DNA of 64,000 nucleotides from Eledone cirrhosa (Eukaryota): NCBI GenBank assembly GCA_964016885.1, contig OZ024742.1, positions 232,314,001-232,378,000 on the forward strand, given 5' to 3'. The position numbers and the translations under genes were made by a program. Every line of letters starts with the position of its first letter. Positions within the stretch are counted from its first letter, which is position 1. The notes under the pieces are model-generated. The model searched no databases and was not told the DNA's origin. It saw nothing but the letters and a program-made list of their open reading frames with translations. This document shows positions 3,346 to 58,560 of the stretch, in pieces.

Positions 3346-5018
3346 GAAGTTGGGCGTTGTTTGTTTGTTGTCCCGAACTTGCAGGCTACACCGTTCATCC
3401 GATTTTCATGAAACTTGACACATATATAAAACTCGAGCCATAGATTGGAATAGGTTACTTGAAATTTTCGAGAATCGATAATCGGGTCCCCAGAAGTCAA
3501 ACATCGATATTTTCAAAAATCGTCCGATTTCGATGAAACTCGACGCAAGTGTGTATTTTGATCCGGGGATGAACGTGGGCTACAAAATCGATAATCGGAC
3601 CCCCCAGAGGCAAAAATCGATATTTTCAGAATTCGTCCGATTTCAATGAAATTTGATATTACCACAATAATAGATCCATTAGGAGTTACTCCAAGGCTGC
3701 AAAATTCAGAAAGTTTTTTTAAACTCATAAATCATGCGTTAAATGTTTTTCATATTTTTTTCAAAAATCTTTCGATTTCAATGAAATTTAATATGTATGT
3801 ATTCAAACACAAGCACTTTTAATTTATACCTGGCGCAATCAAAATCAATTTCATACGCCCATATAAGCCCGCACACACTGTGACTCACGCGCGTTATTGA
3901 TTGGACGGCCTGTCTATACCACGAGCAGTATGTGTTCTCAACAATAGATACATAAACAGGTATGCACGCACGTGCGAACCGCCTTTTTCTCTTTGTGTGT
4001 ATCCGCTTTTTGTGAACAACAATAAATCCGGCCGTCTCACTAAACGGACCTTTACAGAATTTGCCCACTTACTTATCGGTGAGTTAGAGCTTATTTATTT
4101 AGACTACTTGCATGCCATTTCAGTTAAATTTAATTCATTTTTCGCCTTCCTTAAATTAAAAAATCCCCATTGGGACTAGGGGATTGTCGACATCTTAGCG
4201 TTAAACTTTTCATATTCCCCCTTATTCAAGTGCAAGTACAGTATTATCCCTATCTGAAAGGAAACCAAATTTAATCGTGTCTTTTGTGATTCCAAAAGCT
4301 AAAACCGGTGAGTAAATTTTCAAACAGTCTTAAATAATCATGCTTTTTAAAAAAAATTTACTAAATAATACTTTGACCAAGTTGTATTGGACACATACAA
4401 AGTTGTAAAAAATGTTACGTCCGTACCAATTTTTTCCTTTTTTAAACAAAAAGTTCTAAAAAAATTACTTAATTCATAACACTACTGACACAGCCTTTTG
4501 CACAAGAAGTGAGTAAGTTTTCGGGTTTTTAAACGTAAGTTCACCAAGGTTTGTGTCTTTTCCATTATTAGCCCACCTCTAATGGCATTTTTTGTTCTGT
4601 TTAGGACTAAATGTTATGAGCGTATTTGCAAATTGCTATTGTTCTTTAATTTTTTAATTAGTTGTCATAGACCATCTGCATGGAGTGCAATTAATTGCGC
4701 ACACGTACATACCTGCATGCAGATAAACACTGACAGCTAATAAAAAATCGATAATTTGCTTATTAAGACATCGGTCAAAAAGAGAGATTGAATGTACTTT
4801 AGAATAATTTTTTGAATATATTGTTCTTTTTGGCATGATATGTCAGAAATATAGCTACTATTCACTTTGGTTATTTTTTGTAACTAAGAAACGGTTCCTT
4901 TTGGGTGGATACTTAACGAGAAAGATCCCAGGGTTTTGGACAAGTTTGTTTCAGGCAGTGTATAGACGCCAATTTTGTCACACTTTGGTCATGAATTCGT
5001 ATTCTTTTCCAATAGATA

Positions 5019-5269: not shown

Positions 5270-5759
5270 TAAGTTATTATAATCATATTTCCAAACCTTC
5301 CCATTCACCAGTAACCATGCTAGCGAATCTGGTGTCACCTCTCTGTACTTAATCACCCCTCTCTAACCTAACAGCTTCGTTACACGTCGTTATTCCCACA
5401 CGGAAACGCTCAAGACTTACCTCCAAAAAAGATACAGCTACTGCTTTGAGACGACGAATTAGGCGTTCTCAGGTATGCGTTCACTCACAATTGGTTAATC
5501 CTTTATGCAATATTCTCCCTTAATGTTAGCAAGCACTGCGTTTATCCTAACTGTCACCACTTTTAAGCAACTACAACATTCTAATCGTAGTTATATTAAA
5601 TGTATTGTCTTACCTTGTTTCCCTTTTGTTCATATTACACTTTAATCATTTACTATTGGCACAGTGCCTTTGGCTTAGCTAACCAGTAGCATTAATTAAC
5701 TTTCTCTAGGAAACACCTCGACCCTCTGACCCTCTGATAGACGTCTTTCCCGGCTGGTT

Positions 5760-6080
5760 GAGTCACCAACATCTCGTACGACAAGGCTTGCTGATGTCCG
5801 CCTTCGTCGCTAACAAGCGCTTGCGGAGGAGTCACCAACATCCCGTACGACGAGGCTTGCTGGTGTTCGCCTTCGTCACCAACAATTGCTTGCAGAGGAG
5901 TCACCAACATCCCGTACGATGCGGCTTGCTGGCGTTCGCCTTCGTCACCAACAAGCGCTTGCAGAGGAGTCACCAACATCCCGTCAGACGAGGCTTGCTG
6001 GGGTTCGCCTTCGTCGTCAACAAGCGCTTGCAGAGGAGTCCACGGCAGACAGAGACAACAGGCTTGCTGCTAAGCGTTCC
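5760..6080 (+). repeat. 69-bp coding minisatellite (about 4.5 copies; 23-aa repeat)
   Basis: GAGTCACC unit starts at 5760, 5829, 5898, 5967 and 6036; translates ALAEESPTSRxxRLAGVRLRxQQ. Confidence 0.9.
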
Positions 6081-6470
6081 CGGCATACATTAGCTACTGC
6101 TGCCAAGATCTCAGGCTCGATAAAAGCAGCCTTCAGATATAACCCCTCTGAGGATTACGGACTTCTGCCTACAGTTTCCATTGGCAAAATGGATAATGTC
6201 TGTACATCATGCAAGACAATGAAGTGGCCAGGCGAGGCGCCTTCTGTGTGCTGTGCAGGAGGTAAGGTGCAACTAGAGGCATTAGCTGACCCGCCAGACG
6301 TTCTTCTGAATCTACTTACAGGTGACGAAACTACGGCTACAACGTTCCGCCGTAACATGTGGAAATACAACTCCTGTTTCATGATGACCTCCTTTGGTGT
6401 AGACAATAACAACACCAACAACAGCGTGAACCCCAACAACAACTTTGCACCTGTGATGCGCGGGAAATAA
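5886..6470 (+). pseudogene. Helitron RepHel N-terminal fragment (basic repeats plus Cys cluster)
   Basis: AF.Y.P..DY...VSIGKM..VC..C..MKWPGE..SVCC.GGKV.L..L..PP..L..LL.G.......FR.N..KYNSCF.MTSFG is the characteristic pre-Rep region of Helitron proteins. Rep and helicase domains are absent. Confidence 0.85.
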
Positions 6471-11379: not shown

Positions 11380-12144
11380 TACACTTAAGTATGCCCGAGA
11401 AAGGGCGTCGGCTGCAGAGCTGTCTGACCCTTTAATGTAGCGAATATCAGTAGTATATTGGGATATATAATCCAGTTGGCGTACTAGGTGATATAAGGCT
11501 TGGAATATAAAGCGTACGTGAGAGGTTTATGGTCCGTGTAAATAGAAAACACAGTATCTTCTAATATGTGCCGGAAATGTCTCACACAGAGGTACGCTAC
11601 TAAAAGTTCCCCCCGACCGAATGTGTTGTACTTCGTTTCGGCCGGTTTGAGTCGTCTAGAGAAGAAAGAAATTGGCTGCCATGCATCGTCTATACATTGC
11701 TGGAGAACGCCACCGACCCCGACATCCGATGCCTCGACAAACGGACACAGCGGTGCGTCATGTTTGAGATGAACCAGCATTGTGGCCTCTGCTAAGGTCC
11801 TTTTGATTTTAAGAAAGGTAGCTGCTTGTGCATCATCGAAATTGATAAGCTGGTTCTTTCTTTTGAACTGCCGAATTATGTCTGTTAGCGGCTGGAGAAA
11901 CCTTGTACAGCGAGGATTGAACCGGTGGTAAAAAATTTTGAGGCTGAGGAACTCATGTTCTTTCCTCAAGGACGTAGGAGCGAGGAAATCTAAAATGAAC
12001 TTAACTTTGTCTTGGAGGGGACGGATTCCTTGTTTGTCGATGTAGTGTCCCAGAAAATCAAGGGAAGAAACACCGAAAAGACATTTGCCGGAGTTGATGA
12101 TAACACCAAACTGAGAAAAACGCTCGAAAAGCAGTCATAGGTAC
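11380..12144 (-). pseudogene. Gypsy RT C-terminus plus RNase H remnant
   Basis: KCLFG...LDFLGH, ASDVGVGGVLQQ...WQPISFFSRRL..AE.KY.TFGR.ELL..YL.VRHFRH.LE...F.IYTDHKPL. Confidence 0.92.
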
Positions 12145-15744: not shown

Positions 15745-16290
15745 GTACCTTTTGTGTTCCTCATGGGATGTGCTAGCTACCAGCATATCATCAATATACG
15801 CGTAGACGAAGGGTAAACCACGTCCGACTGTGTCGATGAAACGCCGGAAGGTTGATGCAACATTGCATAAACCGAATGGCATCCTAAGAAACTCGAAGAA
15901 ACTAAAAGGGGTAATAATGGCCGTTTTCGGAATATCCTCAGGTTCAATTGGTTGTACGCCCGCACGAGGTCGTCTTTCGAAACGACTCTATCTCCGTGTA
16001 GGGTAGCAGAGAAACCCTGTATGTGAGGCACCGGGTACTTATCAGGTTTTGTGCGTGTGTTAAGAAACCGATAGTCCCCACACGGTCGCCAGTCAGCTAC
16101 AGATTCCTTGGGAACTATGTGAAGGGGTGAAGACCAACTGCTACTGGATGGACCAACAACACCCCGTTCCAGCATATGATCGAACTCTAATTTAGCGATC
16201 TTATCGCAGTCAGAAGCGAGACACCGCGGTGTAGAAGAAAACCGAGGGTCCGCGGTCACAATATGATGCGTAAACTGTGGGTCACAGGCC
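15745..16290 (-). pseudogene. Gypsy reverse transcriptase remnant
   Basis: PSSSSWSSPLHIVPK...WRPCGDYRFLN..TKPDKYPVPHI, DLVRAYNQ, and YIDDMLV in a shifted frame. Confidence 0.92.
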
Positions 16291-16429
16291 GACTGTTAAA
16301 AATCGGGCGCCTGATGTCATGGTGCTTACGCAGAATAGCGTCGTATCTGCCGGGCTGCACTGGGTTAAAAAAACAACAGAACTGAACCAATCAGTCTGTT
16401 GTGTTTAACGTCCACCAGGAAACCAAAAT

Positions 16430-30766: not shown

Positions 30767-30833
<67 letters not shown>

Positions 30834-31289
30834 TAGAGAGAGAGAGAGAGAGGGGTGGGGTGGGTTCAACGAATAAGTTCTCTTTCTTAGTGTGTCTAAA
30901 AGTGACACGAGTCTATTCAGATGATAGATGATAAACAACAGCAGTAACAACTTTGATACACTGATAAGGCGGTTCTTTGTCTCAGAACTAGAGAACGCAA
31001 AGTATAACTAAAGTAGAGAAGCTTCAAGTCTTGTAAAACAATATTTGTACTGATGGTACACAATACAATACAATGCCTCTTTCTTTTACACTCCACTCGG
31101 TTAACAACATCACCTGATCGCCTTCAAAGGAGTTCGCACTATTTTGAACATTCGGTTTAGGTCAGTAGTACTCCAACTGTTTCTCCTTGCGGGGCAGTGC
31201 ACTTTATACCTAAATTCGGAAATTTATTCAGAAGAGGTATTTATACATATTAGCATAGCATTAAGTATAAATATATATAATTAAAACAA

Positions 31290-31490
31290 ACCTGGCAACC
31301 TCTAAAAACCCCAAACGGGGGGTACCATGAAAAACGTGCCCCAAAACGGGGTGAAATGAGGCAAAATGGGAAGATTTTAAACAATGAAAGCTATATCCAT
31401 TTTCACAAGAGAATCACAAGAGAAGACATCTCTCACCCATCCCAAAGTGGATGGGAGATCTCCCCGTCGGACGGGGAGAGTTGACAGGTC
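31290..31490. mobile_element. MITE-like dispersed repeat
   Basis: Ends ACCTGGCAAC / GTTGACAGGT; inverted homolog at about 40595-40740. Confidence 0.55.
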
Positions 31491-31634
31491 TGATTAAAAA
31501 TACAGAAAAAGCATTTGTACTTTCTTCTTCGGTTAATAAATGGAGCCAAGTTATTAATGAGAAACATACAGTAGCATCTAGTGTATGCTTCTCATTAATG
31601 ACTAATGACATCTAGTGAATAGATGTTTTTGTAA

Positions 31635-32153
31635 TCTATATATATATAAAAGTGAGATGTTTATTGGCTGGTTGGCTGAATCACACGAAAACTACACATA
31701 CACACACAAATACATACACACACATCTAAAGCTAGAGAAAAACACAGAGGGAGAGGCAGAAAGAGAGAGATAGGCCGTTATACAGAGGGAGATACAATAA
31801 AAGTGTTAGTTATTCACAGAGAGAGTAACGTCCCACGAAAGTCTAGAGACGGCTTAAACTATAAATTCTTTGATCTATAGGAAGGTTTAACAATATTATG
31901 TTAGCTTTTATAAAGTCACTTTACAGTCTTTGATTTTACAGAACAAAGAAAAATTGTTACTATTCGAAATGAATCTACACTCTAGCTTTTATACATAAAC
32001 TACTTACAGACAGTACTAACGAAGCTAAACACTTCAGAAGCAATGTTATGCGGTATATTGCTGCGTTTGGTAAGTCGATAAGTCATTTTGTACCCAACGA
32101 AAGGATAAACATATATCATTCATAGAGATAGGAAGATAACCAGATAGATATAT

Positions 32154-32238
<85 letters not shown>

Positions 32239-32746
32239 TGGGTTCAACGAATAAGTTCTCTTTCTTAGTGTGTCTAAAAGTGACACGAGTCTATTCAGAT
32301 GATAGATGATAAACAACAGCAGTAACAACTTTGATACACTGATAAGGCGGTTCTTTGTCTCAGAACTATCTTTTATCCATAAACTACTTACAGACATAAA
32401 CTACTAACGAAGCTAAACACTTCAAAAGCAATGCTATGCGGTATATTGCTGCGTATAAGATGACGTCCTTTGGAGCTGAAATGGATCATACTGACTATGG
32501 TTAATTCACATTTAAAATCCAAGGCCAATGCTACCATTTAATCAGCAGTTTACTGCCCCAGCCTAATAAGGAAGTTTTATGATTGTTTTTTTTTTTATGT
32601 CTCTCTCACACACACTCACACACACACACACACACACACATTACGGTCTCACCTCATACTGTAAACCAGACAACACATCGAATACAGTCTCTTTTATCCG
32701 TCTTCTCTTAACTATTCTCCCGGGCGAAGCCGGGTACCCCAGTTAG
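31635..32746 (+). mobile_element. Non-autonomous Helitron carrying a copied neighbouring segment
   Basis: A|TCTATATATATATAAAAGTGAG start; CCCGGGCGAAGCCGGG hairpin then TTAG|T end. Confidence 0.8.
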
Positions 32747-33908
32747 TGTTTTCTAGTTTAGTTTTTTCCCTCTTTGACATATGAACTTTATAACGAATTT
32801 CAATTAGTATTTTCCACATTTTGAAATAAAATTTTGCTTTTTCGCCGCAAATCTAATTACATTCTGCAGCGCATCAATGTGCTGGGCCACACAGTTTGAG
32901 AACCACAAGCTTAAGTCTTAGATTTAAGGAAAACAGACTTTCGACTCACTATTTTTCGGATTGCAACTTTCCTTGAGTAGTGGCCACTAACAACTAAAAT
33001 CACTAGCTTAGCTGAAGTAGAGGGGGCGTGGGTTGGTCCGCCCCGGGCGATACCTTTATGGGGGCGACACTTTAAGAGAGTCACTGAACAATATGTTGTA
33101 ATCTTTGTGGGAGGCAGATGGAGGGGAGAAAGGAGAATCTTAAGTGGCATACACTCTAACTTCTCTTCTGACTTAAAAGCTTCCGGACAGAGCTACCGTT
33201 AAATAGTACATGAGGCAACCTTATCAGCTGGTGCATAATGCTGTTATTCGTCATCCCTAGTCTTTAATAGATAATCCTGGTTAGCATGATAGGGATTTCG
33301 AGAGGCCACTCTATCTTTAGCTGGCTTACTCACAGAGATTAGCATTCTTATGTTGTTAACCAAAAAAAAATTCAGCACTGAGCAAACCTATGATCAAAGG
33401 CAATCTAACCATGATCATCTTTTTTTCTTTGTTTTTTTTTTAAAGACATAATGTATCTAGGTCTAAATTGTCCAATGTGTCCTTACTTTTCCAAGCCAGT
33501 ATGGAGTAATTTAAAGATTTCAATAATATCTCTAGCAGATCGAACGATTGTTTAAAAGCTTTAGCTCGCAGAGATTGGCGTAGTTACACGGCTTCTCCAA
33601 ATACGTTTGGCCATTCTCAAATCAAAACTTTGAGCCAGTCATTGCCGTTTCTGTCAGCATCGGGTGGTTTGATCATTGCCTAATAAAAATAATATACCTC
33701 GACCTCATAATCTCTTCCCAGCAAAAACTATTTCGCGAATAGGTGCTAACTGGTCGAATATATGCCTATTCTATACAGACTACTTTTGGTAACAGATGTA
33801 ACTCTCTTCTAGCCTATCTGAAACTAAGGTAATCAAAACTATGACATTCCTCTACAACTCCCACGCAATCAAACCCAACAATCCATAAACTGTCTAATGT
33901 ATGTATGT

Positions 33909-34503
33909 TATCTCTTTCTCTTAATTTCGAGTATATTTATTTTGACCGGCCACCTTCCTGGTGGCAAGGTTGTAAAAGAAAGGAAATTGTCATCCCTTGA
34001 ATTGCAAGAATGTTTTGCAAATTTTGAAGGTGCCAGCTATCGCAGCCATTTGTAGACTATGAATTAGGGAGCTGCGCTCTTTGTCCGCAAATCCAAGTTC
34101 AGTCATACTTTGGTCCAAACGGGTTGGTATATAACCCGTAGCTCCAATAATGATGGGTATGAAACTAAAGGTGTATCTTGGATACTGAATTTGCAAACTC
34201 TTCATCAATGGTCCGTAGATGTCCTCCTTCTCCTGTATTTTTTTGACAACGTTTACATCAAGTGGGCAGCTGATCTCCACAACAGAACACGTTTTCAATG
34301 TGTGGTCCCAAACAACAATAACAGGCCGGTTGTGCTTTAATTTGGTGGCAGTTTTTATTTTCAGGTTCTACCAGTATTCCTTAGTGCCATCTGTCTCAAT
34401 ATATTCTTCCTCGTTTGTTGTTAATTTTGTTTTCCGAAGTGCGTTCCAGATGGTTCTAGCTATCCCATCGTGTCTCATGGGGAGGTAGTAGCGTGATGAC
34501 ATT
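33909..34503 (-). mobile_element. R4/Dong-like RLE non-LTR retrotransposon, family A, 5' truncated copy 1
   Basis: RHD motif, KHNRP(D)IVVWD...VVEISCP.D.N..K..EK..Y..L restriction-like endonuclease; short 3' UTR then (CATA)n tail; (CATA)n at 5' junction. Confidence 0.88.
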
Positions 34504-34521
34504 GTATGTATGTATGTATGT

Positions 34522-35288
34522 AATCTCTTTCTCTTAATTTCGAGTATATTTATTTTGACCGGCCACCTTCCTGGTGGCAAGGTTGTAAAGGAAAAAAAAT
34601 TGTCATCCCTTGAATCGCAAGAATGTTTTGCAAATTTTGAAGGTGCCAGCTATCGCAGTCATTTGTAGACTATGAATTAGAGAGCTGCGCTTTTTGTCCG
34701 CAAATCCAAGTTCAGTCATACTTTGGTCCAAGCGGGTTGGTATATAAGCCGTAGCTCCAATAATGATGGGTATGAAGCTAAAGGTGTATCTTGGATAATG
34801 GATTTGTAAACTCCTCATCAATGGTCCGTAGATGTCCTCCTTCTCCTGTATTTTTCTGACAACGTTTACATCAAGTGGGCAGCTGATCTCCACAACAGAA
34901 CACGTTTTCAATGTGTGGTCCCAAACAACAATATCAGGCCGGTTGAGCTTTAATTTGGTGGCAGTTTTTATTTTCAGGTTCCACCAGTATTCCTTAGTGC
35001 CATCTGTCTCAATATATTCTTCCTCGTTTGTTGTTAATTTTGTTTTCCCAAGTGCGTTCCAGATGGTTCTAGCTATCCCATCGTGTCTCATGAGGAAGTA
35101 GTAGCGAGATGACATTCTTTCGCAGCTGGCAACAATGTGGCTTACATCGTCGATCTTTGTTTAACATAGCCTACATTTATTGTCAGCTGCTGTCCCTCCC
35201 CTTTTGTGCAGCAGATATTTGGTAGGGAGTTCTTGTTCCTGTATTGCATAGAGATATCCCTCAAGGTGTGATGTCATAAACTTGTCGG
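34522..35288 (-). mobile_element. R4/Dong-like family A copy 2
   Basis: ORF 34603-35115 (RPDIVVWD..E.SCP) plus upstream EGYLYAIQEQELPTKY and a CCHC knuckle (CRLC...IDDVSHIVASC); microsatellite on both sides. Confidence 0.9.
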
Positions 35289-35360
35289 TATGTATGTATG
35301 TATGTATGTATGTATGTATGTATGTATGTATGTATGTATGTATGTATGTATGTATGTATG

Positions 35361-35579
35361 TTCTTCTGGTTTTATAATTTCACAAATTTTTTCCCAATAG
35401 AGAGAGAGTCGGTTTCGAACATAAACACAAGATATTGGAATTTACACATCAACTCCTTAGTGCCATCTGTCTCAATATATTCTTCCTCGTTTGTTGTTAA
35501 TTTTGTTTTCCGAAGTGCGTTCCAGATGGTTCTAGCTATCCCATCGTGTCTCATGGGGAGGTAGTAGCGAGATGACATT
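35361..35579 (-). mobile_element. Chimeric insertion: family A internal piece fused to the family B 3' UTR
   Basis: 35455-35579 matches A (MSSRYY...GTKE); 35361-35454 matches the B 3' end at 35657-35750. Confidence 0.8.
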
Positions 35580-35656
35580 GTATGTATGTATGTATGTATG
35601 TATGTATGTATGTATGTATGTATGTATGTATGTATGTATGTATGTATGTATGTATG

Positions 35657-37439
35657 TTCTTCTGGGTTTATAATTTCACAAATTTTTTACCAATAGAGAG
35701 AGGGTCGGTTTCTAACATAGACACAAGACATTGGAATTTACACATCAACTCGGTAGATATGTATGCACGCATGTGTAGATATGGATGTTATTGTATGTGT
35801 GGATGTGTATGTTTTGAGTTGTATGTGGGCATGTGTATATGCTTTGTATCGTACATGTGTATATGCAGTTATTAGATGCAACATTTTTGGAATGCTTTAC
35901 ATATTTTTACTGTTCCATTAATGGATTGTACTGGTAATGTCCTAACTAGTTGTGTTCTTTCTGTTCCTGTGAAGCCTAGCTTCTCAAGATTTGTATTGAG
36001 GCAGTTACTAACATACCCCAGTGCCCCAAATAATCACAGGCATAAATCTGAAGGTGAAATCAGGGTGGAGTATCTGCAGATATCTCATTAGTTCTGCATA
36101 AATATTCTCATTTTCGATAATCTTTGATATTATGCTGGGCAGCTTACTTCCACTGCTGTGCATGGCTTCTTTTCCCCGTCCCATATCATTATATCTGTTC
36201 TGTTATGCCTGCATTTTATTGGGGTTTTTACTGGAACATTCCACCAGTATTCTTTCATATTATGTACATGGATGTCTTCCACATTGCTGTAGCTTTTAAT
36301 GTGTTTATTATCGGGCTATCTTTTTTACGAACTGCATTGTACAGTGTTTTGGCCACTACATAGGTAGATAGTACCGCGATGACATCTTTGGACAGCTGCT
36401 GATGACATGGGTGATATCCTCGATGTTAGTTCTGCAGAATCTGCACTTGTTATCACATCTAGGTGTTTTGCCTGCATCCCTATCTCTTTTGTGAATCAGG
36501 TATTTCGTGTTAATCTCCTTTTCTTGGATTGCAAAAGCGTATCCTTCAAAGTGGGAGCCAATATAACGGTTGTTGGTCCAAGATAGACTACTTTCCTTAT
36601 CTATATTACTCTCACTCTGGAGCTTCCTGGCAACATATCCATGCATGATTTTTTACTGATAAGCATGCAGTTTTTCATCCATGGATTCACTGCGATACTG
36701 CTGAGCGACTTCCCTGGGTGTGAGTTTTTGATTATCACACAGGGAATATCTCTCGAGGAGTTCCTTCCCAACTCTCATGAGCTTATCTGTTTCATGCAGA
36801 TAGACTTGCTCGAGAAACGGGCTCCTACGCTTCGAGGTTCGTAGATGTTGTCGGAGGGATATGATGCGACATCCAAATGCTGTCTGGACTGATGTTAGGC
36901 CTCTGCTTCCCTGCTTACGTTTCAAGTAAAGGCGGTCTATGTCACTGTTGATGTGGAGGTTTCCTGTGTTGTTTAGTATTTTTCGAGTTCCAACATCAAC
37001 TGCTCGGATTTCGTCTATCGTCCAATTGAGTATTCCAAACGTTGGTGTTAGGACAGGCACAGCAAACACATTGTGAGCCACTGTTTTGTTTTGCGCAGAG
37101 AGTTCCGATGACCAGATCTTTCTTAATCGGGTGTAGTATTCCCTGGTTACGCGTTCTTTATTACAAATACCATTATAGGATATGTTCTCATCTATCCCCA
37201 GGTATCTGTAGCAGTCCTCATCAGATATCGGTGAAACAGTTAGGCCATTGATGACAATGTTGCTAGATTGGGTTGTTGTTTTTCCCCGCTTTACAGCCAT
37301 GTATGAGCATTTATCTTGGCCAAACTCCATTCCTATATCATTTGAGAACGTTGTAACCAGGTCAAGATTTTTCTTCATCCCATCCATGTTCTTGGCATAG
37401 AGTTTCAGATCGTCCACAAAGAAATTATGGGTTAGGTTC
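35657..37439 (-). mobile_element. R4/Dong-like family B, 5' truncated (RT end, thumb, CCHC, RLE)
   Basis: LTHNFFVDDLKLY, YRYLGI, DIDRLYL.RK.G.RGL, HGY, CRFC...EDITHVISSC, EYWWN...HNR.DIMIWD...VEVSCP; distinct 3' UTR plus (CATA)n tail. Confidence 0.92.
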
Positions 37440-37526
37440 GTATGTATGTATGTATGTATGTATGTATGTATGTATGTATGTATGTATGTATGTATGTATG
37501 TATGTATGTATGTATGTATGTATGTA

Positions 37527-37825
37527 CATGGGAGTGAAGGACCCTTAGCTTTTGTCAAGGCATTCTTCTAGGAGAAGGCAACTCAGGAAACTGGGATAAC
37601 TCCGATATAAAACCTGCGGCCCAGTAGTTACCGATGATGTTGATCTTTTCTTTTTTTCGGGTTGTAGCTACTGTCGCCCAGAGAGTGGAATTGGCTCAGT
37701 GCACAGTATTTCCTCACTTTAAAAAATATCTTTACGCACAGGCATTGCACGATAGAATTAATTAATAATTATTAATAAAGGTGTATCGTGCAATGGCCAT
37801 ACTCGATAACGAGGGGGCAGCCATC
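37527..37825 (+). mobile_element. Non-autonomous (TATG)n-inserted element, variant N2 (5' truncated)
   Basis: Highly similar to 38480-38771; (TATG)n flanks. Confidence 0.8.
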
Positions 37826-37858
<33 letters not shown>

Positions 37859-37898
37859 TGTATGTATGTATGTATGTATGTATGTATGTATGCATGCA

Positions 37899-37948
<50 letters not shown>

Positions 37949-37951
<3 letters not shown>

Positions 37952-38232
37952 CTCTTAATTTCGAGTACATTTTTGACCGACCACCTTCCTGGTGGCAAAG
38001 AAATTGTCATCCCTTGAATTGCAAGAATGTTTTACAAATGTTGAAGGTGTCAGCTATCGCAGCCATCTGTAGGGAATTAGGGAGCTGCGCTCTTTGTCCA
38101 CAAATCCAATTTCAGTCATACTTTGGTCCAAGCGGGTTGGTATATAACCTGTAGCTCCAATAACGATGGGTATGAAGCTGAAGGTGTATCTTGGATACTG
38201 GATCTGCAAACTCCTTAGAAATGCTCCGTAGA
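37949..38232 (-). mobile_element. R4/Dong-like family A copy 3 (short 3' fragment)
   Basis: IYGAFLRSLQIQYPRYTFSFIPIVIGATGYIPTRLDQSM plus the family A 3' UTR. Confidence 0.88.
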
Positions 38233-38243
38233 TGTATGTATGT

Positions 38244-38771
38244 CGGGTCACTCTTGAGTGCTATTGGCAACATGTAACCCAGTACAACCTGTCGCATGGT
38301 CGGGTCGTCGGCGACTAAACCGGCAACCCCACCAAGTTTACTTGGTGAGGAGGGTAATTTTGGACACCCTGCAGAACAAAAAACAAAACCTGACAAAGGG
38401 CGGAAGAACTCATAAGAGTCAACAGCCATCCCAAAGTGTGTAAATATGTATATACACGTGTACCGCACGGTTAAACCACTGGGAGTGAAGGACCCCTAGC
38501 CTTTGTCAGGGCATTCTTCTAGAAGGCAACTCAGGAAACTGGGATGACTCCGATATAAAACCTGCGGCTCAGTAGTTACCGATGATGTTGAGCTTTCTTC
38601 TTTTCGGGTTATAGCTACTGTCGCTCAGAGAGTGGGATTGGTTCAGTGCACAGTCTTTCCTCACTTAAATAAATATCTTCACGCACAGGCATTGCACGAT
38701 AGAATTAATTAATAATTATTAATAATGGTATATCGTGCAATGGCCATACTCGATAACGAGGGGCAGCCATC
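38244..38771 (+). mobile_element. Non-autonomous element N2, longest copy
   Basis: Starts after TATGTATGT, hairpin-rich, ends ATGGCCATACTCGATAACGAGGGGCAGCCATC then ATGT repeats. Confidence 0.8.
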
Positions 38772-38790
38772 ATGTATGTATATATGTATG

Positions 38791-39287
38791 TAGTGTTTGT
38801 ACCAGAGTTTTCAAGTCGCTGGCTGGACTAAAAAGCCGCACTCGTTCAGCGCATCGGTAGGAGTTCTCCTACATGGATATAAAGTAGTGGCCGTACTCGA
38901 AAACGAGGCAGAATTGTAGGAGAAGGAAAACTCTGATATAACACCTGCAACCCTGATGGTATCCAATGATGTTGACTTATTCTTCTTTTTGGTAAATATC
39001 ATCTTGGGTTAAGAGAGTGGGACTGGCTTTGTGCAGTGCCTTTGCTCACTATAAAAGCTTCACGGCACAGGCATTGCTTTATATCTGGAGATCTCTCTAC
39101 ACTTGTCGTCACATGGTACCAAGGGCCCAACACTATGTGTCAATAATTGTCACAGGTGTAGTGTTTGTACCAGAGTTTTCAAGTCGCTGGCTGGACTAAA
39201 AGTCACACTTGTTTAGCGCATCGGTAGGGGTTCTCCTACATGGATATAAAGTAGTGGCCGTACTCGAAAACGAGTTGGCAGCCACCA
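38791..39287 (+). mobile_element. Non-autonomous element N1, permuted / partial tandem copy
   Basis: 3' segment (38791-38906) precedes a second unit (38907-39287) matching 1408-1787; (ATGT)n tail 39288-39370. Confidence 0.82.
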
Positions 39288-39341
39288 TGTATGTATGTAT
39301 GTATGTATGTATGTATGTATGTATGTATGTATGTATGTATG

Positions 39342-39373
<32 letters not shown>

Positions 39374-53575: not shown

Positions 53576-53647
53576 AGATGCAGGTGAAACTCCAGAGTAA
53601 CAAGACTCACAATTTACCCTTAATAAAATGAATATATATTTAAACAT

Positions 53648-53690
<43 letters not shown>

Positions 53691-53692
<2 letters not shown>

Positions 53693-55691
53693 GCGGGATG
53701 GGGGAAGTAGAGAGGACTATCAAGTGGCCAGGAGGGTAGCTAGGAGACAAGTGTACTTCGCAAGAAGGGAAGCTGAGGAAAGAAAGTTCAAGCATGTTCT
53801 ACAACGCGATGACCAAAAACGTGAGGTGTTCAGGATTGCTAGGCAATGCGTCAAGGAAAACCGTGATATTGTCGGGGAGAAGTGTGTACTAAACGACGAT
53901 GGCACACTTGCCATCACCGACGCTGATAAGAAGGTAGCTTGGAAGTGTCACTATGAAAGGCTACTAAATGAGGAGAATAATTGGGAGAAAGGCAGTCTCC
54001 CCCATATCGACCCAATAGAGGGACCAGCAGTGTTAGTCGAGGGGAGTATAATAAGTAAGGCAATCAAGGATATGAAGACTGGTAAGGCGGCTGGGCCTTC
54101 GGAAATAGTTGCTGAGATGCTGAAGGCATCTGGCACGGTGGGACACACCATGGTCACCCGCATAGTTAACCAAGTCGTACAGAATGGGGTTGTTCCGAAG
54201 GACTGGCATAGCAGCATCATCGTTAACTGTTATAAGGGTAAAGGAGACGCCCTAGATAGGAGTAACTATAGAGGCATTAAATTAATCGACCAGGTCATGA
54301 AGGTCACGGAAAAAGTAATAGCGCAACTAATCAGAGAGAGAATTGACCTAGATGAAATGCAGTTCGGGTTTGTGTCAGGCAAAAGTACCACAGACGCTCT
54401 TTTCATAGTACGACAACTACAGGAGAAGTACCTAGCTAAAGGTAAACCCCTCTACTTAGCTTTTGTCGACTTGGAGAAAGCCTTCGACAGAGTCCCCCGC
54501 TCCATTATCTGGTGGGCTCTTAGAAAACTAGGCGTTGACGAATGGCTTGTGAGGGCTATACAAGCCATGTATAAAGAAACAGTCAGCAAGGTTAGAATTA
54601 ACAACGAATATAGTGATGAGTTTAGCGTAAAAGTTGGCATCCATCAGGGCTCTGTTCTCAGTCCACTACTATTTATTATTGCCCTTCAGGCTATAACAGA
54701 GGAGTTCAAGACAGGCTGCCCATGGGAACTCCTATACGCAGACGACCTGACACTCATAGCGGAATCAATGGCCGAGCTAGAGAAGAAATTCCAAACATGG
54801 AAGCACGGCCTAGAGTCAAAAGGACTTAAAATTAACCTGGCTAAGACCAAAGTACTAGTTTGTAGGAAAGAAAACAAGGCGGCGGTCCCTTCTGGGAAAT
54901 GGTCGTGCTCGGTGTGTAGGAAAGGCGTAGGTAGAAACTCCATTTTATGTCCTAAATGCAAAGTATGGGTGCATAAAAGATGTAGTGGGATCACAGGTAA
55001 GCTAACTAAGAACATAGATTTTACATGTGGCCGGTGCTCTGGTGCAATAAGTAGCAGCAAGTGCCCACAAACTACTAGCTCTTTCAATTGCGCAGAGGGT
55101 TCTATAGAAATAGTGGACAGCTTCCGTTACCTGGGCGATAAAATCAGCAGTGGGGGAGGGTGCTCTGAAAGTACTGTAGCTAGAGTCAGAACTGGTTGGA
55201 AAAAGTTCAGAGAGCTTATACCACTATTAGCTGCTAAAGGGTTCTCACTAAAAATGAAAGGCAGGTTGTACGATGCCTGCATACGAACAGCAATGCTGCA
55301 TGGCAGTGAGACCTGGGCATTGTGTGCAGAGGATATACGCAGACTAGAGAGGAACGAAGCTTGCATGCTCCGCTGGATGTGTAACAGTAATATACGTGAA
55401 CGGCAAAGCATAAACGAACTAAGGAAAAAATTAGAGATAAGAGGGATCAGATGTTGTTTACTCGAGAGAAGGCTACGTTGGTATGGACACGTGATGCGCA
55501 TGAAAGTCGATAGCTGTATAACAAAGTGCAGGGCAATAAAGATAGACGGTAGTCACGGAATAGGCAGACCTAGAAAAACCTGGGACGAGCTGATAAACTC
55601 CGACATCACACACTTACACCTCTCCAAGACAATGTCACTGGACCGAGACCTTTGGCGGTACTCAGTAACAGAGAAAACCCGCCTTACCTAA
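53691..55691 (+). CDS. RTE-clade LINE reverse transcriptase, 5' truncated (no endonuclease) but uninterrupted, with a PHD-like Cys/His insert
   Basis: NYRGIKL, QFGF, FVDLEKAFDRV, HQGSVLSPLLF, LLYADDL, FRYLG, RRLRWYGHV. The ORF start in the track (53628) lies in flanking DNA/microsatellite. Confidence 0.95.
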
Positions 55692-56068
55692 ATATATAGT
55701 AAAACCTACTCCAGCCAGTAGGCATCTCTAACAAAATACACCCCGTCCCACCACCACCACCCCCACCCGATCCACACCACCCCGTTCTATGTAAAGTTAT
55801 GTTGGTGCCGCGCCATCGAGGCCGAAACAAATGAGATCGTGTAGGTGTCACGACAAAAAAACACACAGTCCACGCTGTAATGTGGCCGTGTAGGCAACAC
55901 GGTAAAAACCTCCCAGACCCACACTGTAAATGTGGTTGGTGTTAGGAAGGGCATCCAACTGTAGAAAACCTGCCAGACAGTCCTATGCGAGCAAGACAAT
56001 CACTCTTGCCTCAAGTGGGACTACCCCTGTCCAAACCCATGCAAGCGTGGAACACGGACGTTAAACGT

Positions 56069-56107
<39 letters not shown>
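53691..56107 (+). mobile_element. Young RTE LINE copy
   Basis: Open RT frame; 3' UTR with GTTAGGAAGGGCATCCA.CTGTAGAAA motif; (GAT)n tail 56070-56107. Confidence 0.93.
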
Positions 56108-56108
<1 letters not shown>

Positions 56109-56264: not shown

Positions 56265-58560
56265 AATAATAATAATAATAACAATAATGAAAATTATTGT
56301 GTACAGTGCTCAGATGCACTACAACTCATCAAAGGTGCATGTATAATACATAGAATAATGGAAAAATATCAGGAAAGTGAACAGTATATGAGTCATTATA
56401 TACACACATGCGTATGTGTGTATAGAGAGGGGGAATATCAGGTGTAGTGTTGGCGAATTTTGGGAAGCATGGAAGTTTTAAAGGATGCAGTGTCCCGAAT
56501 ACTAACAACTGATGCAGGTAATTTGTTCCATGCTTCAGCAACTCTGAGCGTGAAAAAATGTTTACAAAAGTCTTGGGAGCTGTACTATTTTCGGATTTTG
56601 TAAGCATATCCATGGGTGTTAGACACATGGAATTCAAAAAGTTGCTCAGGGTTGTTATTGGAAAGATGGTTAATAATCTTGTGGGTGTCTACCAAGTCAG
56701 TTGCCAGATGCTGGAACTTTAATACATCCATGCCCAAGGAAGCAAGGCATTCAGAGTATGATAGATGCCTGATGGAGGGTATTCGTTTGGTTGCACGTCT
56801 CTGAAGAGTTTCGAGGAGATCAATATTCTGAGCAGGATAGAGGTTCCAGACTTGTGATACAAATTTTAAGTGTGGATGCACCATAGCTATATACAGCTTT
56901 AAACAGATAGCTGGAGAGTGGCTGACAAAGGTCTTACTGAGTGATACTAAGACACCCTCAGCCTTCTTGACCGTTTTAGAGATGTGCTTTGTCCAACACA
57001 AATTGCTGTTGATAATAATGTCCAGGTTACATTCACAATAAGATTTCTTGAGATTGGTGTTGTAGAGGGAATATGTGAACACTGGTTTTTGTCCACAGTC
57101 AGTTTGAGTTGCTAGTCTGTAATCCATTGCTGCATTATGTTCAGGTCTGATTACAGGAGAGATCTGTGTACAGGAGAGATCTGTGTACAGGATCTGTCTT
57201 TTTTAATCTCAAGGTACAGCTTGATGTTATCTGTATATTTCAGCACTGTTGCATTCTTTAAGTTGGCATCTATGCCATTAATATATGCAACAAACAAAAG
57301 GGGACCAAGAACAGATCCTGTGTTATACCAGATGTCATCTCATAGGGTGAAGATTGCTGTCCTAGAACCATGACTACCTCTTTTTGACTGAGAATGAAGG
57401 ACTTCAACCAGTTATAAAGATCATCTCTCACACCCATTGCAGAGAGTTTGCCATAAATCTTTTGTGTGGCATAGAATTAAAAGCTTTAGCAGAGTCAAGA
57501 TAAATAACATCTACCCTTGTGTTGCCATCAGTGATTCGGATAATGTTTTCAAGAAACTCGAAGAGTTGATCAGAGCAGCTGAAGTTAAGGATAAATCGAA
57601 ATTGTGAGGGTTGGATAAGGCTGTGAGAGTTCCAGAAGTTCCATAATGTTTCTCTGACACACGACTCCATCAATTTGGTGATGCAGCTAGTAAGTCTGAC
57701 TGGACGATAGTTGACAGGTGACTTGCAATCACCCTTTTTGATCAGAGGAATGACACTGGCAGTTTTCCACTGTTCTGGAGTAAGACCGTTGTTAAGGCAG
57801 AATTGAATGAAAGCTGGTGCAGAAGGAAGTACCCACCACATTTGAGAAGCAGGTATGTAACACCTTCAAGACTAGGAGAGGCATAGTTGCGTTTATTCTT
57901 AAGTTGGTGTCGCAGTATTGCAGGAGTAAATTCTATAGTTGCTATAGAATTTGCTGTCAGAGGTGGTGGAGATGGTATATTTTGATTTTCAACAGTAAAA
58001 GTGTCTGCATTCTTTGGGATTGTAAATAATCTGGCCTCTGTAGGGATTGCGAAGAGGACCAATTGGAGAGTGAGGGCTCTGCTTTAAACGTACATATTTC
58101 CAGAACACTTTGCTGTCGGAGTTGGTTGCTGCGTGCTGTTCAAATTCAAGCACTGCTTTTTTTTGTCACCTGCTTGAGATAGTTAGATGATCTATTGCGC
58201 TTTTTTCTATTAACCCCTGATCCATGTAGTCTGTTTGAGATAGTTAGATGATCTATTGTGCTTTTTTCTATTAACCCCTGATCCATGTAGTCTGTATTCC
58301 CGTTCAGCATCACAATGTTCTTTGCTGGCAAGTTGGACTGCTGCAGTCTCCCAAATTGCACTTTTGTTGTTCATGTACTTATTTTTTATTATTTTTTCAC
58401 TATTTTTGTCATATAATATATTTTGATTTTGATTTTCTCTGTATACCAAAATGAAATTTATGTATTAGTTTTGTCAGCAGTAAGCGAGGAATATTGCAGA
58501 TATGTTGAACTCACCACTAATAACATAGGTAACCTTTTCTCAGATAATTCTCTTTCTGAT
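56265..58560 (-). mobile_element. Degenerate CR1-clade LINE
   Basis: WKTASVIP..KKGD..SP.NYRPV.LTS.I.KLME, DVIYLD..KAF.S..H, GSVLGPLLF.AYIN, QRRATKRIP.IR.LSY.E.L..L; (ATT)n tail. Confidence 0.9.

Follow-up and report, generated by a model that had tools for sequence, protein, structure and literature searches.

Organization of the array

The analysed window comprised 64,000 nt of Eledone cirrhosa contig OZ024742.1 (assembly GCA_964016885.1, positions 232,314,001 to 232,378,000, forward strand). A stack of eight element pieces was confirmed in it, with nine TATG tracts (no strand assigned) between and around them. The left end is formed by a (TATG)3 tract (33897..33908), where the left flank and the junction start were present in read contigs, followed by A1 (33911..34503, minus strand), a 5'-truncated family A copy with the C-terminus of the restriction-like endonuclease (RLE) and the 3' UTR (reference positions 3653-4243; ~97% identical to other A copies). 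After a (TATG)5 tract (34504..34522) lies A2 (34524..35288, minus strand), likewise 5'-truncated, with CCHC, RHD and RPD..E..K motifs in a reading frame interrupted by one stop and one frameshift; it is 96% identical to A1. A (TATG)18 tract (35289..35361) leads to an A/B chimera (35360..35579, minus strand), in which A 3653-3777 runs into the final ~92 nt of B, and a (TATG)19 tract (35580..35657) to the 5'-truncated, decayed family B copy (35658..37439, minus strand), which retains the end of the RT (RVT_1, E 6.7e-6), CCHC and RLE and is at most 92% identical to other B copies. The minus-strand translations of A2 and B read as RT/CCHC/RPD..E..K fragments.

Beyond a (TATG)21 tract (37440..37526), the 5'-truncated, RTE-derived, non-coding C1 (37529..37827, plus strand) is 93% identical to C2. 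The next tract (37828..37949) consists of (TATG)n with CATG variants and (TG)24, and its (TG)n portion (37902-37949) adjoins the 3' end of A3. A3 (37950..38235, minus strand) is an older 3' fragment of family A with deletions, 87% identical to young A copies. A (TATG)3 tract (38232..38243), the full-length, 528-bp C2 (38244..38771, plus strand) and a degenerate TATG/TA tract (38772..38792) precede the D unit (38793..39286, plus strand), in which a D fragment (reference 472-587, 95%) is connected to a young D copy lacking its 5' end (reference 219-599, 99.5%). The right end is a (TATG)21 tract (39287..39371), the right flank of which was present in a read contig.

The array had been annotated as eight insertions in one microsatellite, three of them non-coding. 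The eight TATG-bounded pieces stand, eight independent insertions do not, the chimera probably being a local duplicate; the three non-coding copies are present, but they belong to two families, C and D, and the D unit is itself two pieces.

Families A and B

Families A (~4.2 kb) and B (~4.1 kb) encode, in this order, N-terminal helices (predicted to be Myb/SANT-like), RT, CCHC and RLE, as assigned from an 823-aa frame in locus L099, RVT_1 and zf-RVT matches, and motifs conserved in the alignment. The R4/Dong clade is characterized by a single long ORF in which RT precedes CCHC and a PD..(D/E)..K endonuclease. No AP endonuclease was found in the long ORF, and the domain content bears out the initial assignment of both families as RLE-type Dong/R4-like LINEs. 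R2 proteins, which are of interest as insertion tools, are their best solved relatives. N-terminal zinc fingers are present in R2, NeSL and CRE and are not known from the R4/Dong clade; the N-termini of A, B and their homologues gave no zinc-finger Pfam match and no Cys/His pattern, and contain a conserved W..W..P three-helix domain with weak fold matches to Myb/SANT-like domains (best Z 6.4).

The nearest named protein to A is from Argonauta hians. In a quick RT tree of unnamed relatives, A and B formed a long-branch group (SH-aLRT 100) together with (CTTA)n-flanked elements, beside (TAA)n-flanked ones. Close metagenomic relatives are flanked by (CTTA)n and distant ones by (TAA)n; relatives at 29-36% identity mostly carry (TAA)n at their end, several of them on both sides. 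These flanks suggest that a lineage related to Dong took up tetranucleotide targets. Since close RLE proteins (~50% identical) with targets one base apart, CATA and CTTA, thus occur as natural pairs alongside a TAA-targeting outgroup, what determines the choice of target in R4/Dong elements becomes directly testable.

Dong of Bombyx mori targets (TAA)n (PMC2887409, PMC3774820). With the Dong/R4 clade A and B share the single ORF with RT, CCHC and RLE, 5' truncation and a microsatellite on both sides; they differ in their (CATA)n target and in being dispersed through the genome in thousands of copies. Dong further carries an HDV-like ribozyme (PMC3774820), whereas none was found at the A/B 5' end, either by Rfam, which covered the window and hence no full-length 5' ends, or with a home-made, unvalidated descriptor run without a positive control. 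Simple-repeat insertion has been described for Togen in (TG)n, for some HERO families and for Mino in (AC)n (PMC4640811, PMC3124438); these belong to other clades with dinucleotide targets, and the available text of the sources does not name CATA/TATG for them. In octopus, Dong-R4 and RTE families are abundant or recently active (PMC13282606, PMC8967140, PMC9115989) and resemble A, B and the RTE element described below by clade, with no target site given in the portions of these papers at hand.

Family R and its derivatives C and D

Family R encodes APE and RT in a single frame broken by one stop (Exo_endo_phos, E 5.7e-11; RVT_1, E 1.6e-31) and has the short 3' end adjoining a simple repeat that characterizes the RTE clade. 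Its first atlas match was a CFDP2-like protein (0.97), a name which we take to mark BovB-type endonucleases. TATG was found at 9 of 10 visible R 5' junctions, showing that the autonomous element, too, occupies these arrays.

Family C is derived from R. C2 is composed of a head of ~220 nt in common with D, an RTE 5' UTR piece and an RTE 3' end: C 221-484 matches the R 5' UTR at 89-90% and C 490-528 the R 3' end at 95-97%, with no ORF, as in bipartite non-autonomous RTE elements. Neither of two long R copies that were inspected contained a match to the first 220 nt of C. Bov-A, WALLSI3 and RTESINE are likewise made of a 5' UTR piece and a 3' end (PMC5786205); the additional head sets C apart from this description. 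Family D matches the R 5' UTR at 67% and the R 3' end at 83-87% over 30 nt, and in its 3' part there is what looks like the remnant of a C2H2-like zinc finger, similar to the end of the RTE ORF. A limited search found no autonomous element with the exact D 3' end; D would be mobilized by an RTE element. At loci not selected on D, only the 3' end was present in 20 cases and only the 5' end in 2; for C the truncation polarity is weak when taken alone (7 vs 4).

A partnership of the non-coding copies with A and B, as first suggested, was not upheld: the copies are RTE-derived, lie in opposite orientation and do not resemble full-length A or B in sequence. An assignment of C and D as same-sense partners with 3' truncation was dropped after R had been identified, and their ends do not match those of TIR elements or Helitrons. 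Rfam gave no matches in the whole window at gathering score and, by E-value over 37.4-39.4 kb, repeat-driven miRNA matches alone with no tRNA family, a search that decayed heads can escape; no convincing ribozyme emerged when the C/D head was folded as RNA.

RTE insertion has been described as not sequence-specific (PMC2887409) and as leaving a Tn-TA signature (PMC13295347). Unlike this, R, C and D lie inside TATG/TA arrays with fixed polarity, so that in a clade usually called non-specific a family with strong, strand-polarized microsatellite use is found. On the 3' side, (TA)n was the array context of D in 14 and TATG in 13 of 29 copies, and in the control RTE family P, which has a templated (GAT)n tail, 11 of 18 visible 5' junctions lay in (TA)n and 1 of 18 in CATA. 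RTE targeting is therefore looser here than that of A and B and may reflect a general preference for AT repeats.

Target junctions of families A and B

Junctions were compared with a background sample of 600 kb, evenly spaced across the genome, in which CATA occurred twice on the strand in question in 0.88% of 30-nt windows and TA in 6.3%; the copies compared had been chosen as the closest matches to those in the window rather than drawn at random. Against this background frequency the stack in the window lies far outside chance. The true 5' junctions were CATA in 22, TA in 2 and other in 4 of 28 A copies, and CATA in 23, TA in 2 and other in 1 of 26 B copies, with TATG in none, giving (CATA)n on the correct strand at 45 of 54 junctions and non-repeat DNA at 5 of 54. 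From these counts and the background, CATA is preferred over TA ~80-fold. The genome holds 281 exact full-length A starts, and CATA stood just before 29 of the first 30, which were inspected. At the 4,607 exact A 3' ends, 3,336 matches (a few double-counted) run on into ACATACA and 363 into ACATATA. With 45 of 54 5' junctions and 29 of 30 full-length starts in (CATA)n against a 0.9% background, the CATA repeat is the target of A and B and not merely their tail, and the (TAA)n of Dong proper is not what flanks them. This agrees with the initial annotation, which would have been refuted by a majority of 5' junctions devoid of CATA, and copies with (CATA)n on both sides were seen across the genome. 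A literature search, with Repbase and Kojima and Fujiwara 2004 outside its reach, found no paper describing CATA/TATG as a target.

The TA content of the 5' and 3' flanks was correlated across copies (rho 0.62, n=116; A/B alone 0.42, n=49), as expected if a pre-existing array was split; CATA content was uncorrelated between the A/B flanks (rho 0.07), and an allele with an empty site was not encountered.

Polarity, clustering and proposed mechanism

Wherever an A/B copy had an RTE-derived neighbour, the two were in opposite orientation (28/28), and A/B neighbours were in the same sense in 24 of 25 pairs. Another element lay within 260 bp of 77 of 145 sampled copies, compared with 37 of 1000 random windows, and similar mixed stacks were found at dozens of other loci. 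Two unrelated kinds of retrotransposon use the same repeat from opposite directions, in this array and at many other loci, likely because each nicks or primes on its own strand. TRAS and SART use one telomeric repeat on opposite strands and in opposite orientations. Parallel targeting of U2 snRNA genes by unrelated endonuclease types is described for Utopia and Keno (PMC4640811). Compared with both pairs, the common target here is a dispersed microsatellite, approached from opposite directions by an RLE and an APE clade.

We consider it probable (roughly 80%) that a (CATA)n/(TATG)n microsatellite was already present and became the repeated target of two unrelated systems with fixed opposite polarity, likely by opposite-strand TPRT, so that elements stacked. 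The insertions would have been spread over a long time. A and B would nick the TATG strand, with the 3' end joining at ...AC|ATAC, the 5'-truncated end returning into CATA and the target being duplicated barely or not at all. For R, C and D the nick would fall on the CATA strand, with priming on a brief AT match to the end of the RNA (...GCAGCCAYC|AT); these families also accept (TA)n. As each insertion would leave repeat on both sides, the site would stay usable and elements could stack, local duplication contributing the chimera. A more far-reaching version, to which we would give even odds, places A and B in a so far undescribed lineage related to Dong, whose target changed from (TAA)n to (CATA)n here and to (CTTA)n in close relatives, with the RTE elements independently specific for the opposite strand; such microsatellites would then be polarized landing pads common to two endonuclease classes.

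Under an alternative that is unlikely overall and suits R, C and D more than A and B, most of the specificity would come from the RNA 3' end, which would pair with DNA exposed where alternating AT-rich repeats are nicked or broken with little sequence preference, rather than from recognition by the protein. The 3' junctions start with AT in 30 of 30 R and 27 of 29 D copies irrespective of array type, the flank of A copies within (TA)n still begins with ACAT, and family P, too, lands in (TA)n. Against this, A and B choose CATA over the far commoner (TA)n, the repeat used changes with phylogeny among their relatives (CTTA or TAA), and Bov-B copies are reported to be rarely flanked by tail-like targets (PMC13295347, section 4.1); we infer recognition by the protein.

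Abundance of the repeat

CATA runs of at least 16 bp made up 0.18% of the 600-kb sample, compared with 2.8% for (TA)n, which makes the TATG runs 15-fold rarer. These elements adjoined 13 of 32 such runs and 8 of 14 runs of at least 24 bp. At this level, no support was found for an unusual TATG abundance explained by a feed-forward loop, as had been proposed, and the evidence for regeneration of the target is weak. That the repeats are templated tails, and that stacking into earlier tails built the arrays, is very improbable, even though close neighbours were seen for more than half of the sampled copies and D shows target duplications of 8-27 nt in 14 of 29 copies (21% in control pairs), enough for each insertion to lengthen the array by a few units. 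No element lay within 60 bp of 19 of the 32 runs, lone copies have arrays on both sides, and in 26 of 53 A/B 3' flanks the perfect (ACAT)n is broken within 14 nt, the break being included in a duplication in just 2 of these 26 (5% in control pairs); long or consistent A/B target duplications were not above control pairs.

Instead of an array grown from its own tails, repeated use of a pre-existing microsatellite remains our preferred reading. Families A, B, R, C and D together made up ~2.8% of the 600-kb sample, and the repeat landscape is thus shaped by them. Because they carry simple repeat on both flanks, their insertions may be overlooked by insertion-polymorphism callers, a blind spot that could bear on the low Dong activity reported in PMC9115989.

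Origin of the chimera and integrity of the array

The 27-mer at the chimera junction occurs once in the genome. The 5' junction of the chimera is identical to that of A1 and absent from 54 other A 5' ends (0/54), and a 6-bp deletion common to the chimera and the adjacent B is absent from 28 other B copies; from these two shared features, the chimera is probably a product of local duplication and deletion rather than an insertion. At 99% likeness and only ~4-fold depth, no read contig covered its B side or junction. Truncation points of A were joined to TATG in read contigs and in raw reads of another individual; no piece in either set crosses the whole array, leaving the interior without spanning confirmation. 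An array that is largely an assembly artefact or a local tandem duplication would accommodate this gap, the chimera and the tandem duplicates seen within other arrays (L176, L109), but is highly improbable, given that the units are of different families and ages (identities from 87% to 99.5%) and are truncated at different points, that A1 and A2 are no more alike than unrelated copies (96%), that mixed stacks recur elsewhere and that both outer flanks were found in read-derived contigs.

Insertion sites of families A and B

Full-length sequences of the Dong/R4-like LINE families A (4,243 bp) and B (4,057 bp) were obtained by extending eight long copies of each. Both code for RT and contain CCHC and RPD..E..K (endonuclease) motifs, and AP endonuclease was absent from their proteins, which share ~50% identity and whose solved-structure relatives were R2 proteins in 5/5 cases. 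Their conserved N-terminal three-helix domain, predicted with pLDDT above 90, may resemble Myb/SANT, but with weak matches (best Z 6.4) this is a lead only. In the 3.0-Gb genome, family A gave 4,607 exact 3'-end and 281 exact 5'-start matches; its closest named protein is from Argonauta hians.

Junctions were sampled from the best-matching other copies, 29 from A and 28 from B, after one segmental duplicate was dropped; 5' junctions were traced through internal deletions, and three running off their locus were left out. A junction counted as CATA when ≥2 units lay within 30 nt on the strand of the element, and background was taken from 60 evenly spaced 10-kb stretches (600 kb). CATA was found at 45 of the 54 5' junctions ((TA)n at 4, neither at 5, TATG at 0) and at 29/30 full-length A starts (first 30 of the 281), with a background per strand of 0.88% for CATA and 6.3% for TA. 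Since truncated copies cannot bring the donor's 5' flank, the upstream repeat belongs to the insertion site. Targeting of (CATA)n by these LINEs, which the initial annotation had proposed from the array, is real and genome-wide; nicking chemistry at the repeat is what we infer.

The same annotation had described (CATA)n tails. The 3' flanks do carry CATA (A 26/29, B 24/28, both strands in 2 more), and A 3'-end matches continue genome-wide into ACATACA (3,336) or ACATATA (363). A templated tail is nevertheless not supported: the perfect (ACAT)n is broken within 14 nt in 26/53 A/B 3' flanks, with the departure included in a duplication in only 2/26 (71/1,352 control pairs). The two flanks of one copy correlate in TA content (rho 0.62) and CA content (rho 0.35; n=116); for CATA content in A and B alone they are uncorrelated (rho 0.07). 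The control RTE-like family P, which has a templated (GAT)n tail, showed CATA at 1/18 and (TA)n at 11/18 visible 5' junctions.

Relatives and published targets

A metagenome scan returned 80 loci, of which the 30 reaching furthest toward the C-terminus were inspected. Among the five closest relatives (46-52% identity), three contigs at 50-52% had (CTTA)n flanks, L263 at both ends, L262 at the 5' end and L265 at the 3' end, and two had no repeat at the available ends; most of the 25 distant ones end in (TAA)n. In a quick RT tree (65 rows), A and B fell together with the CTTA elements and 21 protein-search homologues in one long-branch group (SH-aLRT 100), with B closer to the CTTA elements than to A at modest support.

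Passages in PMC13282606, PMC8967140 and PMC9115989 describe Dong-R4 and RTE as abundant or active in octopus genomes and name no target site for them. According to passages in PMC3774820 and PMC2887409, Dong has a TAA target and a 5' ribozyme and RTE insertion is not sequence-specific; PMC4640811 describes RLE clades as mostly target-specific, with Togen targeting TG, and Utopia/Keno convergence, and PMC5786205 bipartite RTE derivatives (see also PMC8869645, PMC3124438, PMC13295347). No CATA/TATG target was found in the literature searched; Repbase, Dfam, supplements, or Kojima and Fujiwara 2004 could already record it.

RTE-derived families in the same arrays

The non-coding families C (528 bp, 4,682 candidates) and D (599 bp, 4,441 candidates), previously taken for partners of A and B, derive instead from RTE-clade LINEs, C from family R. 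C 221-484 comes from the R 5' UTR (89-90%) and C 490-528 from the R 3' end (95-97%), and C-like sequence at locus L091 shares a reading frame with the AP-endonuclease ORF that follows it. The first 220 nt of C are common to D and older families and absent from both long R copies checked; D, whose top copies are 99-100% identical to each other, is farther from R than C, and its zinc-finger remnant resembles R's ORF end. In both, truncation affects the opposite end from that lost in A/B: at loci chosen independently of C and D, the GCAGCCACC end stood alone in 20 D copies and the other end in 2 (full 10, internal 2), the same count for C being 7 and 4.

Flanks of R carry TATG at 22/30 3' sides and 9/10 visible 5' junctions, and 5' flanks carry it in 26/29 C and 18/29 D copies ((TA)n in 11/29 D). 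Adjacent RLE-RTE pairs were opposite in 28/28 cases, RLE-RLE pairs same-sense in 24/25 and RTE-RTE pairs same-sense in 22/27. The RTE system's use of the same (CATA)n arrays in opposite orientation to A/B is real. Duplications of 8-27 nt were seen in 14/29 D copies vs 21% of control pairs (C 4/29 vs 7%; R 2/11 vs 3%).

An inverted repeat links the R 5' and 3' UTRs (GCATTGCACGA / TCGTGCAATG; L185 reverse strand, 1668 and 5985); in C, the junction of the two R-derived parts falls within this stem, so that a hairpin remains (38688-38742). Older relatives of the C/D head (76-85%) at L172, L188, L196, L110 and L035, mostly next to TATG/TA repeats, imply further non-autonomous families of this type. 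The interval 1189-2193 holds another 5'-truncated D copy, at 1290-1787, flanked by (TATG)25 on one side and a long degenerate TATG/TA array on the other.

History of the array and stacking

All eight pieces of the stack were located at 33897-39371, with nine TATG tracts between and around them; compared with natural full-length reference copies, they are A1, A2, a B/A chimera, B, C1, A3, C2 and D, numbers denoting individual copies. Identities of 87% for A3, 92% for B, 93-96% for C, 97% for A1 and A2 and 99.5% for D show that the array grew over a long period. The count of eight insertions stands only approximately, at about seven to eight. The chimera's A/B junction occurs once in the whole genome, its A part and A1 have an identical first base position (shared by 0/54 other A 5' ends), and its B part and the adjacent B have a common 6-bp deletion absent from 28 other B copies; despite 6 mismatches over ~92 positions to that B, it is best read, from sequence comparison, as a probable local duplication with deletion. 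The D unit comprises two D pieces.

Both outer flanks are present in read-derived contigs, and A truncation points are joined to TATG there and in another individual's raw reads; no piece spanning the whole array was found in either. In further arrays, at L176, L109 and L098, there are either tandem duplicates whose 5' junctions are identical or long A copies head-to-tail.

Stacking in repeat arrays is general, 77/145 sampled copies having another element within 260 bp vs 37/1,000 random windows. The initial annotation had invoked a feed-forward loop of target regeneration. CATA runs of ≥16 bp are few, however (32 in the 600-kb sample, 0.18% of bases vs 2.8% for TA), so target scarcity would explain stacking without it; 13/32 runs adjoin A, B, C, D or R elements.

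Other features of the window

Family P, young and preferring (TA)n arrays (1,462 search candidates), lies at 53601-56108, with a PHD-like finger match after the RT domain. At 5692-6470, a reading frame containing 69-bp tandem repeats matches Pfam STPRs and is followed by a Cys-rich motif reminiscent of Helitron proteins. Decayed LTR-type RT/RNase H fragments and more LINE RT fragments were found at 11484-12134, 15777-16295 and 56585-57865. At 30774-32311, (GA)39 and AGATGAT repeats reappear ~1,380 bp apart, which suggests a tandem duplication.
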